The notes under the pieces: generated by a model
The model's input: the letters and a program-made list of their open reading frames with translations, nothing else
Databases searched by the model: none
What the model was told of the DNA's origin: nothing
Position numbers and translations under genes: made by a program
Part shown: one piece after another, positions 1 through 4,539 of the stretch
Layout: each line of letters opens with the position of its first letter
Numbering within the stretch: position 1 is the first letter of the stretch
Assembly (NCBI GenBank): GCA_028286615.1
Contig: JAQBRG010000003.1
Span: 13,125 to 77,124 of the forward strand
Source of the DNA: Parcubacteria group bacterium
Lineage (GTDB): Bacteria > Patescibacteriota > Minisyncoccia > Phycocordibacterales > Phycocordibacteraceae
Length of the DNA: 64,000 nucleotides
Direction of reading: 5' to 3'

Positions 1-38
1 ACGCCCAATGTGGGCGTTTAATTCCAAGACTTATTTAA

Positions 39-122
39 GGTGCGCCGGGGAGGATTCGAACCTCCGAAGCCAGAGGCGGCACGTTTACAGCGTGCTTGTT
101 TTGACCACTTACCTACCGACGC
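39..122 (-). tRNA. tRNA-Tyr (anticodon GTA), class II with a long variable arm. The 3' end encodes discriminator A plus CC but not a full CCA.
   Basis: Read on the minus strand the sequence is GCGTCGG..GCACG-CTGTAAA-CGTGC..GGAGG-TTCGAAT-CCTCC-CCGGCGC-A-CC. The acceptor stem is 7 bp with one G-U pair. The anticodon stem is 5 bp with a 7-nt loop, U33, anticodon GTA and A37. The T-arm carries the canonical GGTTCGAATCC. A 13-nt variable arm with a small stem resembles bacterial tRNA-Tyr. The D-stem pairing is weak by my folding. Confidence 0.7.
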
Positions 123-897
123 ATGAAAAGTTTTCAAAGCGCTGCTGGTGCTTCGTGTTCGCAGGTTTTATTTCGCGAAAGAAGCGCTCAACGTCCTTGC
201 GTCGAGTCAAATACACTACCACTCCTGCACTGATCTCAGACGGTTTGTATTCTAGCTCAATTAGAATACGTCGTAAAGAAACTAGCATGGGCAAGGACAT
301 GTTAGTAAGGGAGATTTGTATACCGAACTTTAGCTTATATACTGACCCGTCTGTATCAAAGAAACCTTTAAGAAAGGCCACTTTCCATTCCTTTCTTTCA
401 AAAATCCACGAAGGGACATCAACTTGTGACGCAACTTTGTTATAAACCAAACCTTCCTTCTGTAGCCATCTAGTTAATTCTACTGATCCAATATAGACGT
501 TACGATAACCATCCTTTCGTACATTAATAGTTGCAGGCGTATTGAAGAGATGTTCCATTAACGAAGCTACGTACTCAACGTACGGAAGTTCCTTTGTACC
601 AAGCGTCACTGTTGCTTGAAAAGGAGACAAATGTCCGTCGCCCAACATAATACCCATGAACTCGGCTAAGAGAACAGAATACTTTGGGAGCACAATATTT
701 TGCTTCTTATTATTGTGTCTCGGCTTCTTATCTGGCGTACACCTAATTCCTAAGCGTCCCATTCGTGCATACAACGTGCTTTCCTTTAAATTTAAGGCAA
801 TAGCCACCTCTCCAAGGGATAAGTTCTGGATTTCATAGAGTTCTACAATTTCTTTTCTGTAGTTCTCCTCTTCTTTTGTGGTCCATCGATTTGGCAT
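109..897 (-). CDS. LAGLIDADG-family homing endonuclease with an N-terminal HTH (sigma-r4-like) domain. Its 3' end overlaps the tRNA-Tyr 5' end by about 14 nt.
   Basis: Two LAGLIDADG-type motifs are present, MGIMLGDGHL and LKGFFDTDGSV, about 100 aa apart. The N-terminus carries LSLGEVAIALNLKESTLYARMGRLGI, a helix-turn-helix. Confidence 0.75.
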   Translation of the reverse strand: MPNRWTTKEEENYRKEIVELYEIQNLSLGEVAIALNLKESTLYARMGRLGIRCTPDKKPRHNNKKQNIVLPKYSVLLAEFMGIMLGDGHLSPFQATVTLGTKELPYVEYVASLMEHLFNTPATINVRKDGYRNVYIGSVELTRWLQKEGLVYNKVASQVDVPSWIFERKEWKVAFLKGFFDTDGSVYKLKFGIQISLTNMSLPMLVSLRRILIELEYKPSEISAGVVVYLTRRKDVERFFREIKPANTKHQQRFENFSCVGR

Positions 898-965
898 CTA
901 TCCATACTGCCAAAAGTAAGGTGATGCAGCTGTCGATTTCTAATAAGAAACTGCTGAACTTATTA

Positions 966-2210
966 TTACTTCAATACCAATATCAAAACCTCTCGCTTCC
1001 CTCTCTTTACGAGTGCCAGACCGCTTACAAAGTCTTCTATTGAAAGCATCTGTTCGTTTGTAACGGTCTTACCATTTAGACTTATCCCATTTCCTTCAAT
1101 AAGGCGCTTTGCATCAGACTTTGAAGAAACCAAGGGACTGGTTGCGAGCACGTCAAGAACGCTTAGACCTTTTGTAACATCTGCCTTAAGTACTGGAATA
1201 TTTGGTGCCTCAGCAAGAATGGTGGCGTGTGCCAGTTGAGGCAATTCCTTGAGACTTCCTCCAAAGAGTGCGCTTGAAGCGGCTGCAGCGGTTGCTGCTG
1301 CAGCAGGGCCATGCACAGTCTCGGTTATAAGACGTGCAAGAGTCTCCTGCGCTTCACGAGCTCCAGGGTTTTCTTTGTGTGCTGCTATAAGAGTGTCTAT
1401 CTCGGCAATAGAAAGGAATGTGTAGTAACGGAAGTAGTTCTCAAGTCCTTCGTCTGGGAGTGTTAGCCAGAATTGGTAGAACTTAAATGGAGAAGTCTTC
1501 TTTGCATCAAGCCATACGGCATTGCCTTCAGACTTGCCAAACTTCTTTCCTGACGCATCCGTAACAATAGGACCGCAAAGTGCAAATGCTTCTTTTCCTA
1601 ACTTGCGGCGAATAAGCTCAACTCCCGAGAGAATGTTAGTCCATTGGTCAGAGCTTCCAATCTGGAGGTCTACCCCTTTCTTCTGGTACAGCTCAAGGAA
1701 GTCATAACCTTGAAGAAGCGAGTACGCGAACTCAGTGTATGAGATGCTTTCGTCTGGAGTTTCAAGACGGCGGCGTATGATATCTCGCTTGATAAGCTCG
1801 TTAACGGTGAAATGCTTGCCAATATCTCGAAGGAAGTCGACAAGATGCACTTTAAGGAGCCAGTCTGCGTTATCAACAACTGTTATCTTTGCGCCAACTA
1901 TTCGCTGCATCTGCTCTTTGAGCGCCTTCTTGTTCTTTGCTATAGCCTTACTGTCTAAAAGTACTCGCTCTCCTTTTTCTTTCGGGTCCCCGATCATGCC
2001 AGTACCTCCTCCAACAAGAAGGACAATCTTATGTCCGTCTGCAGCAAGACGCTTCATGGTTGTAAGTGGAACAAGGTGCCCTACGTGCATAGAGTCTGCT
2101 GTAGGGTCTACACCTAAATACACCGTCCTCTTCTTTTCAAGGATGGTTTCTATAGGCGCAGAGCTATGTTCTACGAGTCCACGGGCTTTGAGATCTTCAG
2201 CGAGGTTCAT
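966..2210 (-). CDS. tyrS: tyrosyl-tRNA synthetase
   Basis: The class I HIGH motif appears as (M)HVGHL and the KMSKS motif as KFGKS. Length is 414 aa and there is a C-terminal S4-like tail. Confidence 0.93.
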   Translation of the reverse strand: MNLAEDLKARGLVEHSSAPIETILEKKRTVYLGVDPTADSMHVGHLVPLTTMKRLAADGHKIVLLVGGGTGMIGDPKEKGERVLLDSKAIAKNKKALKEQMQRIVGAKITVVDNADWLLKVHLVDFLRDIGKHFTVNELIKRDIIRRRLETPDESISYTEFAYSLLQGYDFLELYQKKGVDLQIGSSDQWTNILSGVELIRRKLGKEAFALCGPIVTDASGKKFGKSEGNAVWLDAKKTSPFKFYQFWLTLPDEGLENYFRYYTFLSIAEIDTLIAAHKENPGAREAQETLARLITETVHGPAAAATAAAASSALFGGSLKELPQLAHATILAEAPNIPVLKADVTKGLSVLDVLATSPLVSSKSDAKRLIEGNGISLNGKTVTNEQMLSIEDFVSGLALVKRGKREVLILVLK

Positions 2211-2239
2211 GAGGCAAGTATAGCAGAATATGCTTAATC

Positions 2240-2872
2240 TTAGCCAAGATGAGCGTGGTCATTCCAGGTATATACCCACCATGGCCTGTCCTTGGTCTCG
2301 TCGTACTTAATTATGGTAAGACCCGTATTCTGCGTTCTAAAAGACCACATCATTCGGTCACACTCGTGAGCTGTTAATGCTTCGCCAAAGGTAACTTGCG
2401 CAATAAGTGCTCTTAGAAAGAACCCGTGAGTAACAACAAGAATATGTTCCTCAGGACGCTCCTCCAAATACTGCAATGCTTTTTGTGCACGTTCCTTTAA
2501 ATCATCAAAGTTCTCCTCGTCCGCGAATCGATATCCTGGAACAGTAAAGTTGGCTAGAATATTTTGCTCAGCGATAACAAAATCCTCGTGATCTTTAGGC
2601 TTATCGGTTTGAATGCTGGCTCTGCTTCGTTCAACAAACAATGGTGAGGTCTCAAGTGCCAAACCTGTGCGTTTAGCAACCGCTTCCGCTGTCTGCTCAG
2701 CTCGTAGCAAGGTACTAGCTACGATTGCTTGAACAGGAAGCCGTGAGGCTCTTTCTGCAAGAAACGCAGCTTGCTGCTGCCCTTTCTCCGTTAAGGCTGG
2801 TGCTTCCATCTCAGATATCATGCCTACATTAGCCTCACTCTCCCCATGCCGGATAAGGTATACGGTCTTCAT
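2240..2872 (-). CDS. histidine phosphatase family protein (phosphoglycerate mutase-like)
   Basis: The N-terminal RHGES catalytic motif is present (YLIRHGESEAN), with a later His (VVTHG). Confidence 0.8.
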   Translation of the reverse strand: MKTVYLIRHGESEANVGMISEMEAPALTEKGQQQAAFLAERASRLPVQAIVASTLLRAEQTAEAVAKRTGLALETSPLFVERSRASIQTDKPKDHEDFVIAEQNILANFTVPGYRFADEENFDDLKERAQKALQYLEERPEEHILVVTHGFFLRALIAQVTFGEALTAHECDRMMWSFRTQNTGLTIIKYDETKDRPWWVYTWNDHAHLG

Positions 2873-2874
2873 GC

Positions 2875-4539
2875 TTATACGGGCAGCTCAACAACGAATG
2901 TAGAACCTTTGCCTGCGCCCTCAGACTCTGCCCACACCTTTCCTTTGTGTGCCTCAATTATGTTCTTAACGATGTAGAGACCGAATCCAGTTGATTCAAC
3001 ATTAACTTTAGTTGATTCTTTGCCGTGTCCTCCCTCTGTAAAGAGATGGTGCATGTCCTCAGCAGTTATGCCCACGCCGGTGTCTTTAATATCGAAGTGT
3101 ATTTTTCCATCCTTCTGTGCAAGCGTTACGTCCACGCTTCCAGACGGTGTGTATTTAACTGAGTTGTCTATAAGGTTCTTGAATACGTTTACAAGCTGGC
3201 CGCGGTCCCCGGTAAACATAAGAGGTGCATCACCGGTATGAACATTAAGCGCAAGCCCTTTCTCATCGGCTACGCGTTTCTGCTCCGTAGCAATCTCATC
3301 TACAAGTGCCTTAAGGTCAAAGGACTCCATCTTGTATGAAACCTTTCCGCTCTTAATATTCGCAGCATTAAGAATCTCTTGAATGGTCTGAGTTCCCTTA
3401 GTGTCTGAGTTCAAACCTTCTTGAAGCATGGGGCGCATGGTATCGGGTACAGGTCCAAAGTCTCCATCAAGCACCATGGAGAAGATGTTTCGAGACTTAG
3501 CAACGAAGCCTTTGATTTGGTGCGTGATGAAGTGGATAAGAGTAACTTGCTGCTTGTTTGCCTGCTCAAGTTCTTTAGCAAGTTTTTCGATACGTTCACG
3601 CTGCTCAATCTCCCTTTTAACGCTTCGAAGTAACAAGTATCCCGCTGTAATAACGAACACAAGGGTAACGTATGTAATGTTGTGAGCTGTACCCACATCG
3701 TTGATCAGAAGAAGAGATCCAACCAGAAGAACTAGAGCCACAACCAGTATCTGTGCACCAAACACTTTAATATTAAAGAGTCGGAATCGAACCATGATGT
3801 ACGCAAGCATGCCTATGAATACAGGCACGCCAAATAGTCCATACTGCCCAATGGTCCAACTATAGTCTCCGAGAAAACTAAGGTCGCTAAAAAGGCTACC
3901 TATTATGTTTCCAAAGGCGAAGGATAGAAGAAAGAGGACAATTCCTGTTGAAGCTAATACAATCTGTTTTCTCTGGTCTCCAGGAGGAGTTTTCATGTGC
4001 CTACCAAACGCAAGCAATATTATCCAAATCGCAGATACGAATTCTAAGAAGAAACCGTAGTAGATCAGCGGACCTTCAACAGCATCCCTGTCACAACTGC
4101 TTAGATCGAAACCTGAAAGCGCGAGCATTGTTGGCGTGAGAACAATGATAGGAAGAAATGGGATAAAAATTAAAAGCTTCTTTTTAAAAGAAATGTCTTT
4201 CTTATCTATAAATACGTATACGAAATAGAGACTAAAAAGATACACAAGAGGCTCTGTGAGAATAGTGAGCGACCAGAAGAACATGGTAAATTCCGGTCTA
4301 TCCGTGGCCCATACGACCAAGTCAGAGAAGAGCCATGTGCCCAAACAAAGAGTTATAAGAAACAGAATTCTAGCCGCAAGCGACTTGCGATTCTTCATTA
4401 AAACAAAAAGTCCGAAACCAAGCGATACTACCAAGGCCGTTATGTGAGAATAATAGATCAAAGGATCAAAAACATTGCTTGAGAAAATCAAGAAACTAGG
4501 CCGCGCCCACTCACATGCTTGTATTACGTCAGAAATCAT
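2875..4539 (-). CDS. sensor histidine kinase with a polytopic N-terminal membrane domain and a C-terminal HATPase domain
   Basis: Multiple hydrophobic helices occupy the N-terminal 300 aa. An H-box region (ITHQIKGF) is followed by N, G1 and G2 boxes (NLIDNSVKY, DTGVGI, GTGFGLYIV). Confidence 0.85.
   Translation of the reverse strand: MISDVIQACEWARPSFLIFSSNVFDPLIYYSHITALVVSLGFGLFVLMKNRKSLAARILFLITLCLGTWLFSDLVVWATDRPEFTMFFWSLTILTEPLVYLFSLYFVYVFIDKKDISFKKKLLIFIPFLPIIVLTPTMLALSGFDLSSCDRDAVEGPLIYYGFFLEFVSAIWIILLAFGRHMKTPPGDQRKQIVLASTGIVLFLLSFAFGNIIGSLFSDLSFLGDYSWTIGQYGLFGVPVFIGMLAYIMVRFRLFNIKVFGAQILVVALVLLVGSLLLINDVGTAHNITYVTLVFVITAGYLLLRSVKREIEQRERIEKLAKELEQANKQQVTLIHFITHQIKGFVAKSRNIFSMVLDGDFGPVPDTMRPMLQEGLNSDTKGTQTIQEILNAANIKSGKVSYKMESFDLKALVDEIATEQKRVADEKGLALNVHTGDAPLMFTGDRGQLVNVFKNLIDNSVKYTPSGSVDVTLAQKDGKIHFDIKDTGVGITAEDMHHLFTEGGHGKESTKVNVESTGFGLYIVKNIIEAHKGKVWAESEGAGKGSTFVVELPV

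Follow-up and report, generated by a model that had tools for sequence, protein, structure and literature searches.

Three genes follow one another on the minus strand near the start of the window (the whole stretch of DNA that was analysed, 64 kb in length): tyrS, an endonuclease ORF and a gene for tRNA-Tyr(GTA) (Table 1). This order, read from the sequence in an earlier note, was confirmed with ARAGORN, Pfam and TIGR00234. The tRNA-Tyr is the sole tRNA that ARAGORN identified in the entire window. Infernal with Rfam scored it at 51.5 bits (gathering score 29), and the boundaries given by the two programs do not place it clear of the ORF. It is uninterrupted over Infernal model positions 1-71, with a G10.A25 mismatch in the D-stem, and its CCA is only partly encoded. 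The possibility that the tRNA contains an intron or ribozyme, or has one nearby, was rejected: Rfam searches of 1..3000 with a limit of E<=1 and of the complete window at gathering score matched the tRNA alone, and the tRNA is contiguous, in agreement with the earlier description of an uninterrupted tRNA and a free-standing endonuclease. A terminator-like hairpin follows the tRNA, of which the T-run is not visible because the window edge cuts the hairpin; in the related locus L212, an equivalent hairpin with a T-run lies downstream of the tRNA. Neither a further endonuclease nor other tRNA fragments were found elsewhere in the 64-kb window.

Table 1. Features of the tyrS/tRNA-Tyr locus, in order of position in the window
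Feature	Position	Strand	Basis
Terminator-like hairpin ACGCCCA-CAT-TGGGCGT, 21 nt past the tRNA	1..17	-	Direct reading
tRNA-Tyr (anticodon GTA), class II, long variable arm	39..122	-	ARAGORN; Infernal 41..122
14-nt ORF-tRNA overlap; last codons C V G R and stop from tRNA positions 1-14	109..122	-	Direct reading
Free-standing monomeric LAGLIDADG homing endonuclease gene (predicted), N-terminal HTH, 262 aa, TAA stop 109..111	109..897	-	PF14528
LAGLIDADG motif 2 (FLKGFFDTDGSVY), GFFDTDGS, catalytic Asp183	337..375	-	G178 to S185 invariant in 30 aligned homologues
LAGLIDADG motif 1 (AEFMGIMLGDGHL), GIMLGDG, catalytic Asp87	628..666	-	G86, D87 and G88 invariant in 30 aligned homologues
N-terminal three-helix HTH domain, residues 7-48	754..879	-	Sigma70_r4_2 E=0.003; AF2 helices 7-23, 28-34, 39-48
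tyrS-endonuclease spacer, 68 nt	898..965	-	Promoter scoring, consensus scan, local alignment
tyrS (tyrosine--tRNA ligase)	966..2210	-	TIGR00234 E=3.6e-103

The assignment of the ORF to LAGLIDADG endonucleases with an N-terminal HTH was likewise borne out. Two stretches of the 262-residue protein, each with one motif, match LAGLIDADG_3 (PF14528, E=7.5e-16), and the N-terminal HTH gives a weak match to Sigma70_r4_2. Since a sequence search of the PDB gave a best match of only E=0.1, a fold comparison was needed. The AlphaFold2 model (pLDDT 89.9) has the order of secondary structure expected for a tandem alpha-beta-beta-alpha-beta-beta-alpha fold, and its top PDB matches in Foldseek are monomeric LAGLIDADG enzymes, namely the TliVMA intein endonuclease (1.3e-10), I-Tsp061I (5e-10) and I-DmoI; the Foldseek probability is 1.00 for I-Tsp061I, I-DmoI, PI-PfuI and I-SceI. 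More than 450 homologues of constant length were found, some of which are labelled 'WhiA' in their sources, and the median dN/dS in the family is about 0.13 over 58 unsaturated pairs. The protein is, judged from its conservation and modelled fold, an intact enzyme under selection; like LAGLIDADG homing endonucleases in general, it would cut both strands of a long target site-specifically and leave 4-nt 3' overhangs. The WhiA Pfam model stays below its cut-off for the window protein (16.5 vs 23.2 bits). With its invariant catalytic Asp residues, its N-terminal HTH and its sporadic distribution, the protein does not match domesticated regulators of the WhiA type, which have lost the catalytic residues, carry a C-terminal HTH and are almost universal in their lineage.

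The ORF enters the tRNA gene without any spacer. Its 3' end reads ...TGC GTC GGT AGG TAA, so that the stop lies about 14 nt inside the tRNA, as the earlier note had stated. A stop within tRNA-Tyr was found in 67 of the 74 related loci where the tRNA was identified, and the overlap is therefore not due to chance. The relatives' ORFs run into the tRNA and stop there, all three reading frames being represented; the overlaps measure 6, 10, 14-16, 22, 31-32 and 37-39 nt, which indicates that the C-terminal tail is not a conserved peptide.

In every homologue context examined, tRNA-Tyr lies immediately 3' of the endonuclease gene. This includes all 74 metagenomic family members with sufficient downstream sequence (at least 80 nt); a single tRNA, that of L171, was missed by ARAGORN and is visible by eye. 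Upstream, tyrS was found in only 8 of the 60 metagenomic members for which 500 nt or more of upstream sequence was available, the other neighbours being ClpB, tRNA-Thr or other genes. Hence the partner of the endonuclease is tRNA-Tyr and not tyrS, and tyrS is an ancestral neighbour of tRNA-Tyr outside the mobile unit. The nearest relatives of the window by TyrRS (77-78% identity), L212 and L213, have the arrangement tyrS-29 nt-tRNA-Tyr without an endonuclease, the empty site carrying a TTGAAA-N17-TATACT promoter. As tyrS and tRNA-Tyr are also linked in seven endonuclease-free species genomes, this linkage, which the earlier note had taken to be uncommon, is a recurrent ancestral arrangement in the clade, and it is only for this reason that tyrS adjoins the element. 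The spacing in empty sites is 25..29 nt, and the spacer sequence is not conserved among them.

In species-representative genomes, the family (family 1) occupies only 3 of the 105 tRNA-Tyr loci sampled. Divergence of the endonuclease parallels that of TyrRS (mean identity 58.8 vs 59.1%, r=0.43), which fits long vertical residence as well as transfer. The closest TyrRS in this comparison, that of L179 (69.7%), is accompanied by an endonuclease that is distant from the one in the window (51.5%). A LAGLIDADG-like ORF in L101 was set aside as unrelated to the site, lying about 6.5 kb away from the tRNA.

Most of the related loci carry a second, partial copy of tRNA-Tyr upstream of the endonuclease. 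When the regions upstream of the ATG were compared with tRNA-Tyr 5' halves, local alignment scores reached 50, the maximum for shuffled sequences being 26, and about 40 of 77 loci scored above this maximum. A relaxed D-loop motif was found in 48 of 85 upstream regions, versus 8 of 4207 control windows. The fragments lie at fixed distances from the ATG (14 or 33-35 nt), and several begin at tRNA position 1, occupying the place expected for the original tRNA after tyrS or tRNA-Thr. They reach tRNA positions 23-30, which places the insertion inside the tRNA gene around these positions and not at the tyrS-tRNA junction that had been suggested in the earlier note. These scars carry several D-arm types, including those of the 'cassette type'. 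A tandem duplication of tRNA-Tyr as the source of the fragments was rejected, since none of 120 sampled stretches contained two matches.

No tRNA fragment could be recognised in the 68-nt spacer of the window by consensus scan. In a local alignment with the empty-site promoter and tRNA positions 1-32 of L212 (tRNA-Tyr gene of the type GCGTCGGTGGTAGAGTGGTCAATTACAACAGGCTGTAAA...), the spacer also scored no better than shuffled sequences (p=0.98). The stretch TGGCAGTATGGATAG matches tRNA positions 8-22 at 10 of 15 positions and was judged a chance similarity. For the copy in the window, the cassette model proposed below therefore rests on membership of the family.

The D-arm differs clearly between occupied and free loci. 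The D-loop motif AGYGGTCAAT is present in 64 of 96 endonuclease-free tRNAs and in only 2 of 82 endonuclease-linked ones, the former having been collected by tRNA pattern from genomes and the latter by protein from metagenomes; most displaced fragments carry it as well. Among occupied loci the D-arm is the most diversified segment of the tRNA (mean pairwise identity 0.57, versus 0.78 in free loci). Alignment to the nearest relatives' tRNAs gives GGTAAGTGGTCAAAAC as the D-arm in the window and GGTAGAGTGGTCAATTAC as the common D-arm, and the differences between the window tRNA and those of its relatives are spread over the whole length, not confined to the 5' part. The common motif is absent from 32 of the 96 endonuclease-free tRNAs, and some endonuclease-free tRNAs bear the same variant D-arms as linked ones. 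None of the 96 endonuclease-free loci has a convincing leftover fragment upstream, and none of the 32 motif-less ones has any; loss intermediates were thus not seen. The correlation between endonuclease identity and D-arm identity is weak (Spearman 0.14), with endonuclease identities of 61.6% for pairs with the same D-arm and 54.3% for pairs with different D-arms.

Promoter scoring identified a -10-like box 4-12 nt ahead of the endonuclease ATG in 69% of the loci. Ahead of the linked tRNAs no promoter-like site was found, the score being equal to that of random positions within ORFs. The spacer in the window contains only a weak extended -10-like sequence, TGGCAGTAT at 904..912, 6 nt ahead of the ATG. 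The sequence GGATAG precedes the ATG in the window, and similar motifs recur; it may be a junction sequence shared with family 2 or a DnaA-box-like motif. Lacking a promoter of its own, the resident tRNA would be transcribed through the endonuclease gene and released by RNase P. That the endonuclease mRNA yields the tRNA by processing of its 3' end had been put forward in the earlier note as an alternative to homing. Such processing would instead complement homing, and the distribution of promoter-like sites, present at the ORF start and absent before linked tRNAs, gives indirect support to co-transcription, with release by RNase P as the presumed further step.

We consider it probable that the locus carries an intron-less homing cassette. 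This would combine a short promoter region with the endonuclease ORF and, joined to the ORF without spacer, a substitute for the 5' part of tRNA-Tyr (the 5' strand of the acceptor stem and a variant D-arm). We infer homing from comparative anatomy. The ORF at 109..897 would be a member of a large family of active, free-standing homing endonucleases with an HTH and a double LAGLIDADG motif, with the tRNA-Tyr gene of Patescibacteria (Paceibacteria/Parcubacteria) as their homing site. Following cleavage, the cassette may spread by gene conversion and insert within the tRNA gene near positions 23-30. Its own 5' part together with the 3' part of the host gene would then form an intact tRNA, and the original 5' part would stay upstream of the endonuclease as a decaying fragment, which in many copies may now serve the promoter of the endonuclease as its -35 or TG element. 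As the variant D-arm lacks the sequence of the displaced fragments and of most endonuclease-free tRNAs, the occupied allele is presumably not cut. The absence of a spacer explains why the ORF is read on into the tRNA until a stop occurs in frame. RNase P would here play the part that splicing plays for intron-borne endonucleases.

Several other explanations have to be weighed against such a cassette. The element could have inserted plainly upstream of a resident tRNA that remained unchanged, the fragments being relics of tandem duplication or errors of repair and the D-arms simple lineage variation. The missing fragment and the differences along the entire tRNA in the window would agree with this, as would the weak correlation of endonuclease and D-arm identities and the variant D-arms on some endonuclease-free tRNAs. 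It is nevertheless unlikely, in view of the lack of tandem tRNA-Tyr in all 120 sampled loci, the constant spacing of fragment and ATG across dozens of divergent loci, the near exclusion of the common D-loop motif from linked tRNAs, and the zero-spacer fusion of ORF and tRNA, which occurs in three unrelated endonuclease families. A free-standing endonuclease directed at the intergenic tyrS-tRNA junction, with an incidental overlap of the tRNA, would account for the window and for about 13% of the relatives, where precisely this gene separates tyrS from tRNA-Tyr, and the corresponding empty sites do exist. We regard it as very improbable, as tyrS is not upstream in 52 of the 60 members with enough upstream sequence, the displaced fragments consist of tRNA sequence and not of spacer, and empty sites show no conservation of the spacer.

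A vertically inherited, immobile DNA-binding protein derived from a LAGLIDADG enzyme, such as a regulator of tRNA-Tyr/tyrS or a WhiA-like factor in a conserved operon, appears quite unlikely. The strong purifying selection, the constant length with an N-terminal HTH and the relation between endonuclease and TyrRS identities would all be expected of it, and WhiA structures are found among the Foldseek matches in addition to the 'WhiA' label of some members. Opposed to this are the low occupancy of sampled tRNA-Tyr loci, the nearest relatives without the gene, the two invariant catalytic Asp residues (unlike WhiA), the insertion scars with their several D-arm types, the varied upstream contexts and the discordance of TyrRS and endonuclease in L179. 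The likelihood of an endonuclease encoded within a group I or other intron, from which tRNA-Tyr would have to be spliced, is practically nil. Group I introns are common in tRNA genes of Patescibacteria, a few of them with endonuclease genes, and one tRNA-Tyr intron has been reported at position 35/36 (PMC13011429). At this locus, the contiguous, full-length tRNA refutes an intron, the Rfam search gave no intron or ribozyme, and in the related loci the upstream fragments are decayed.

Two further endonuclease families were found at the same position, with ORFs that likewise read into the tRNA. Building on the cassette model, we tentatively suggest, at rather less than even odds, that cassettes have captured the essential tRNA-Tyr gene in many Patescibacteria, with RNase P in place of splicing and with at least three families converging on the site: double-LAGLIDADG, a previously unclassified single-LAGLIDADG-like family, and PD-(D/E)XK. 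By providing the 5' third and the promoter of an essential tRNA-Tyr, a cassette would become difficult for the cell to lose. The cut by RNase P would also deprive the endonuclease mRNA of its stop codon. Successive cassettes of altered specificity may overwrite each other, in an arms race that would diversify the D-arm of the tRNA.

If correct, the cassette model describes a route by which a homing endonuclease can enter an essential bacterial RNA gene without intron or intein: a resistant replacement segment regenerates the gene in DNA, and ordinary tRNA 5' processing parts the two products. It would also explain the gene, annotated as 'hypothetical' or 'WhiA-like', that overlaps tRNA-Tyr in hundreds of Patescibacteria genomes, the unusual variability of the tRNA-Tyr D-arm, and the orphan tRNA 5' fragments in this group. 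The family would form a natural set of LAGLIDADG enzymes whose specificities are related but shifted; each enzyme would come with a likely target (the displaced fragment) and a likely non-target (the resident tRNA), and such pairs would be useful for studying the evolution of specificity. A full-text literature search, with subscription-only papers outside its scope, found no description of this arrangement of ORF and tRNA-Tyr.

Parts of the arrangement resemble known systems. The protein shares the double-motif fold, with catalytic acidic residues ending both LAGLIDADG helices, with I-Tsp061I, I-DmoI, PI-PfuI and TliVMA (Foldseek E from 1e-10 to 1e-7 to archaeal intron and intein enzymes; TM-score normalised to I-Tsp061I 0.73). 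Its sequence identity to these archaeal monomeric enzymes is only 16-21%, and it has an extra N-terminal HTH and a location outside intron and intein. Islands and prophages of the integrase type also occupy tRNA genes. Their recombinases are of the tyrosine or serine class, and these elements usually restore the tRNA at its 3' end. As in these islands, a partial tRNA copy borne by the element keeps the gene intact and a partial fragment is found at the other boundary; here the element is free of recombinase, measures about 0.8 kb and regenerates the 5' end.

Within Patescibacteria, self-splicing group I introns occur in tRNA anticodon loops (positions 33-38), most of them without an endonuclease and a few with an HNH enzyme (PMC13011429). 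Phylum and class of host gene are the same, and in both cases a selfish element resides in an essential tRNA gene, which is tolerated because RNA processing restores function. The cassette differs in that it has no intron and a duplicated tRNA segment restores function at the DNA level. SegB of phage T4 is a free-standing endonuclease encoded in a tRNA gene cluster and spreads by intron-less homing: it cleaves alleles that lack the endonuclease gene within the tRNA region and is co-inherited with flanking markers through gene conversion (PMC2330249). The endonuclease gene in the window is likewise free-standing and next to a tRNA gene, and would cleave tRNA-Tyr. SegB, however, is a GIY-YIG enzyme of a phage genome, encoded between other genes and with boundaries of its own, whereas the window enzyme is of the LAGLIDADG type, and no duplicated tRNA segment, ORF-tRNA fusion or variant D-arm has been described for SegB (PMC2330249).

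The mORFs of fungal mitochondria offer a further parallel. They carry the end of a foreign gene, as in atp6 of Allomyces macrogynus and atp6, atp9, cox2 and nad3 of Glomus (PMC3630166). There, too, an endonuclease ORF without an intron brings along a substitute for one segment of the gene it targets, with which it may be in phase or fused, and displaces the host's own segment, which persists as a non-functional duplicate of different sequence (PMC3630166). At the level of the family, the ORF is likewise joined to its target, and the tRNA segment borne by the element differs in sequence from the displaced one. mORFs replace the 3' (C-terminal) end of mitochondrial protein-coding genes, whereas the tRNA-Tyr cassette would replace the 5' part of a bacterial tRNA gene. 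Its functional product would be freed by RNA processing, presumably by RNase P, and not by translation, and the element also seems to deprive the host gene of its own promoter.

The earlier note had described, on the minus strand, tyrS followed by a LAGLIDADG endonuclease with an N-terminal helix-turn-helix (HTH) and then by an uninterrupted tRNA-Tyr(GTA), with the endonuclease stop codon about 14 nt inside the tRNA, and all of these elements were recovered. The open reading frame (ORF) matches Pfam LAGLIDADG_3 in two stretches (E=7.5e-16) and, weakly, an N-terminal HTH of the sigma-70 region-4 type. Its AlphaFold2 model (pLDDT 89.9) consists of a three-helix N-terminal domain and a tandem LAGLIDADG core, with the TliVMA intein endonuclease, I-Tsp061I, PI-PfuI and I-DmoI as the closest PDB folds. 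The tRNA-Tyr is the sole tRNA found by ARAGORN in the whole window; Infernal covers the entire tRNA model without interruption (51.5 bits), and an Infernal/Rfam search of the window detected no intron or other RNA family around it. Positions 1–14 of the tRNA are formed by the last four sense codons of the ORF and its stop codon. A terminator-like hairpin lies 3' of the tRNA, at the window edge.

Features of the window locus, and state of the same locus in relatives chosen by TyrRS (77–78% identity)
Feature or stretch	Position	Strand	Description
tRNA-Tyr(GTA)	39..122 (ARAGORN); 41..122 (Infernal)	-	
D-stem of tRNA-Tyr	97..113	-	weak; G10.A25 and A13.A22 mismatches, two Watson-Crick pairs only (Infernal alignment)
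Endonuclease ORF	109..897	-	262 aa, ending ...TGC GTC GGT AGG TAA
GGATAG	898..903		before the endonuclease ATG
tyrS	966..2210	-	full-length equivalog
L212, L213			empty site: tyrS-29 nt-tRNA-Tyr
L211			different endonuclease (family 2)
L214			CYTH-like ORF only

An identical sequence is annotated as hypothetical in a Parcubacteria-group metagenome-assembled genome; the closest non-identical homologue of the window protein shares only 62% identity with it. More than 450 homologues, all of about 260–270 aa, occur in Patescibacteria (family 1). Neither of the two catalytic motifs (GIMLGDG, GFFDTDGS) varies among 30 aligned members, and the median dN/dS is 0.13 (58 unsaturated pairs); judged from sequence, family 1 is an intact enzyme under purifying selection rather than a decaying relic.

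In the first homologue contexts fetched, the homologue overlapped the tRNA-Tyr 5' end every time, with tyrS or ClpB as the upstream gene. Scanning metagenome contigs with protein alignment yielded 80 family 1 loci. The tRNA-Tyr follows immediately in all loci whose sequence continues for 80 nt or more downstream, and the ORF stops within it in 67 of the 74 loci where the tRNA was found; the overlaps measure 6, 10, 14–16, 18, 22, 31–32 or 37–39 nt and occur in each of the three frames. Translated tRNA makes up the C-terminal tails (…RRSDSGYSRRL, …VGTQAVNEDAL, …SCVGR), the peptide is not conserved, and many ORFs stop at the TAA made by the anticodon GTA and A37. By comparison, of the 60 loci that extend 500 nt or more upstream, only 8 have tyrS there; the constant partner of family 1 is tRNA-Tyr, not tyrS. 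The free-standing endonuclease proposed in the earlier note can thus be retained, while its suggested target, the tyrS-tRNA junction, gives way to the tRNA-Tyr gene as the predicted homing target. In one of the family 1 loci (L171:3780-3870) the tRNA-Tyr directly after the ORF is readable by eye, with an atypical T-arm (GTGAGTGCGACTCTCAC), and was overlooked by ARAGORN.

Species-representative genomes scanned for the tRNA-Tyr sequence of this clade provided at least 120 loci. Among the matches listed, 105 have at least 900 nt of upstream sequence, with family 1 at 3, another endonuclease ORF at 6 and none at 96. The comparison of tyrS-tRNA spacers suggested by the earlier note revealed, among the matches listed, at least seven endonuclease-free genomes with 25–28 nt between the tyrS stop and tRNA-Tyr. 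Since the window's nearest relatives (see table) differ in what they carry there, the locus is polymorphic, as expected of a mobile element, and the tyrS-tRNA-Tyr linkage is judged to be ancestral among them. Both L211 (3752-4339) and L214 (2196-2777) have, between tyrS and tRNA-Tyr, a 193–195-aa ORF that weakly matches the CYTH domain (E about 1e-3). At the tyrS-linked, endonuclease-free sites the tRNA-Tyr promoter has a TTGAAA -35 and a TATAGT/TATACT -10 box. This -35 coincides with the final two sense codons of tyrS, which encode the Leu and Lys of ...VLK (L212:3740-3777, L035, L037, L053, L075, L084, L105, L128), so the synthetase gene overlaps at its end with the promoter of the tRNA that it serves. 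In L090 the two genes are 393 nt apart, and a tyrS-3'-end-like 'ttttgaaata' is repeated just before the tRNA together with a TATAGT box, which may point to an insertion or frameshift close to the tyrS 3' end.

A piece of tRNA-Tyr 5' sequence is found upstream of the endonuclease start codon in most loci. Local alignments of upstream regions to the tRNA-Tyr 5' part score up to 50 (e.g. GCGTCGGTGGTAGAGTGGTCAATTGCGATT in L194 and GCGTCGGTACTCAAGCGGTCAACGA in L184), about 40 of 77 loci exceed the shuffled maximum of 26, and 48 of 85 upstream regions contain AGYRGTYAAT, a relaxed form of the D-loop motif, versus 8 of 4207 control windows. This motif ends at a fixed distance from the ATG, 14 nt in class A and 33–35 nt in class B, and in class B the homology runs on to tRNA position 28–30. 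Where tyrS or tRNA-Thr lies upstream, the fragment is at the place expected for the 5' end of the original tRNA-Tyr. Read most simply, the element would insert inside the tRNA gene and supply a new 5' part, while the old 5' part stays behind. An old tandem tRNA-Tyr duplication as the source of the fragments is argued against by the finding that none of at least 120 sampled stretches contains two tRNA-Tyr genes. In 13 of 82 loci (e.g. L142, L148, L150, L168, L147), DnaA-box-like motifs (TTATCCACA/TGTGGATAA) occur at most 120 nt upstream of the family 1 start codon, an enrichment of about 12-fold (37 of 2929 control windows); similar GTGGATAG motifs precede family 2 ORFs, and the window has GGATAG just before its endonuclease ATG.

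Of 96 endonuclease-free tRNA-Tyr genes (among the matches listed), 64 have the common D-loop sequence AGYGGTCAAT, as do most fragments, versus 2 of 82 endonuclease-linked tRNAs, the free and linked samples having been drawn differently. The D-arms of linked tRNAs are of other types, and their stems are compensated (ACTC…GAG, CGGA…TCC, GACCC…GGGG and the variant GGTAAGTGGTCAAAAC of the window). No segment of the tRNA is more diversified in occupied loci than the D-arm (mean pairwise identity 0.57 versus 0.78 in free loci; T-arm and acceptor, 0.79 and 0.88). By inference, the D-loop and D-stem region would form part of the recognition site, and we somewhat favour the view that a tRNA with the replacement 5' part resists cleavage. 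Fragments in L184, L185, L131, L182, L191, L183 and L203 are D-arm types resident at other cassettes (e.g. GCGTCGGTACTCAAGCGGTCAACGA), which suggests serial overwriting by cassettes with shifted specificity. Altogether, we regard an intron-less homing cassette targeting tRNA-Tyr as the likely explanation.

The window copy combines intact motifs, a zero-spacer ORF-tRNA fusion and a variant D-arm. For this copy itself the cassette model is extrapolated from the family, because no displaced fragment is recognisable in its 68-nt spacer (p=0.98) and its tRNA-Tyr differs from those of relatives along the entire length. The missing fragment may reflect either decay or arrival by recombination with the left crossover in tyrS. 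Five related loci have the same D-arm, which is therefore probably functional despite its weak stem.

Other endonucleases occupy the same position. Family 2 (295 homologues; L011, L046, L066, L089, L091, L111, L211) combines an HTH with a domain of roughly 150 aa that matches no Pfam entry, and its YWAEGYK motif is invariant; its ORFs usually stop at the anticodon TAA, and profile comparison aligned its MLYWAEG with IMLGDG (E about 1e-3). A third family is represented in L039 by a PD-(D/E)XK ORF of the I-Ssp6803I family (PF11645, E=2e-21), which extends from -438 to +6 relative to tRNA-Tyr and ends 6 nt inside it. This convergence of several families supports the tRNA-Tyr 5' end as a favoured homing site. 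A family-2-like ORF (GLYWGEGTK) is located just 3' of tRNA-Tyr in L187 (1134-1773) and also in L177. About 30 nt beyond it in L187 (1800-1900) is an apparent 5' half of tRNA-Thr(GGU) followed by non-tRNA sequence, which may be an intron-containing tRNA; Rfam at gathering score reported no intron in L187, nor its tRNA-Tyr, which has an unusual D-arm.

In 69% of loci the endonuclease ATG is preceded, at 4–12 nt, by a -10-like box. Class A has an extended -10 (TGnTAnAAT), and class B a fragment-derived TTGCAA, 17 nt, TATAAT and 6 nt to the ATG, an arrangement that points to an mRNA with little or no leader. In the window there is a weak TGGCAGTAT alone, 6 nt from the ATG. No promoter-like site precedes the linked tRNAs (mean score 4.8 versus 4.4 at random in-ORF positions), and none of them scores 7 or more, versus 33% of free tRNAs. 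Most likely, therefore, the tRNA-Tyr would be co-transcribed with the endonuclease gene and then freed by RNase P, so that processing from the endonuclease mRNA 3' end, offered in the earlier note as an alternative to homing, is probably true as well. The RNase P cut would also strip the stop codon from the endonuclease mRNA and, speculatively, limit endonuclease expression.

No earlier description of this arrangement was found in the searchable open-access literature. A 2026 survey of Patescibacteria tRNA introns reported group I introns in anticodon loops, with endonuclease genes mostly absent, and does not describe it (PMC13011429); a 2024 study of candidate phyla radiation (CPR) bacteria dealt with LAGLIDADG insertions in their rRNA genes and leaves tRNAs unmentioned. 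Among known systems the fungal mitochondrial mORF comes closest, as it brings along a foreign C-terminal segment of a gene and displaces the native segment (PMC3630166), followed by the intron-less homing of T4 Seg enzymes, including SegB in a tRNA cluster (PMC2330249).
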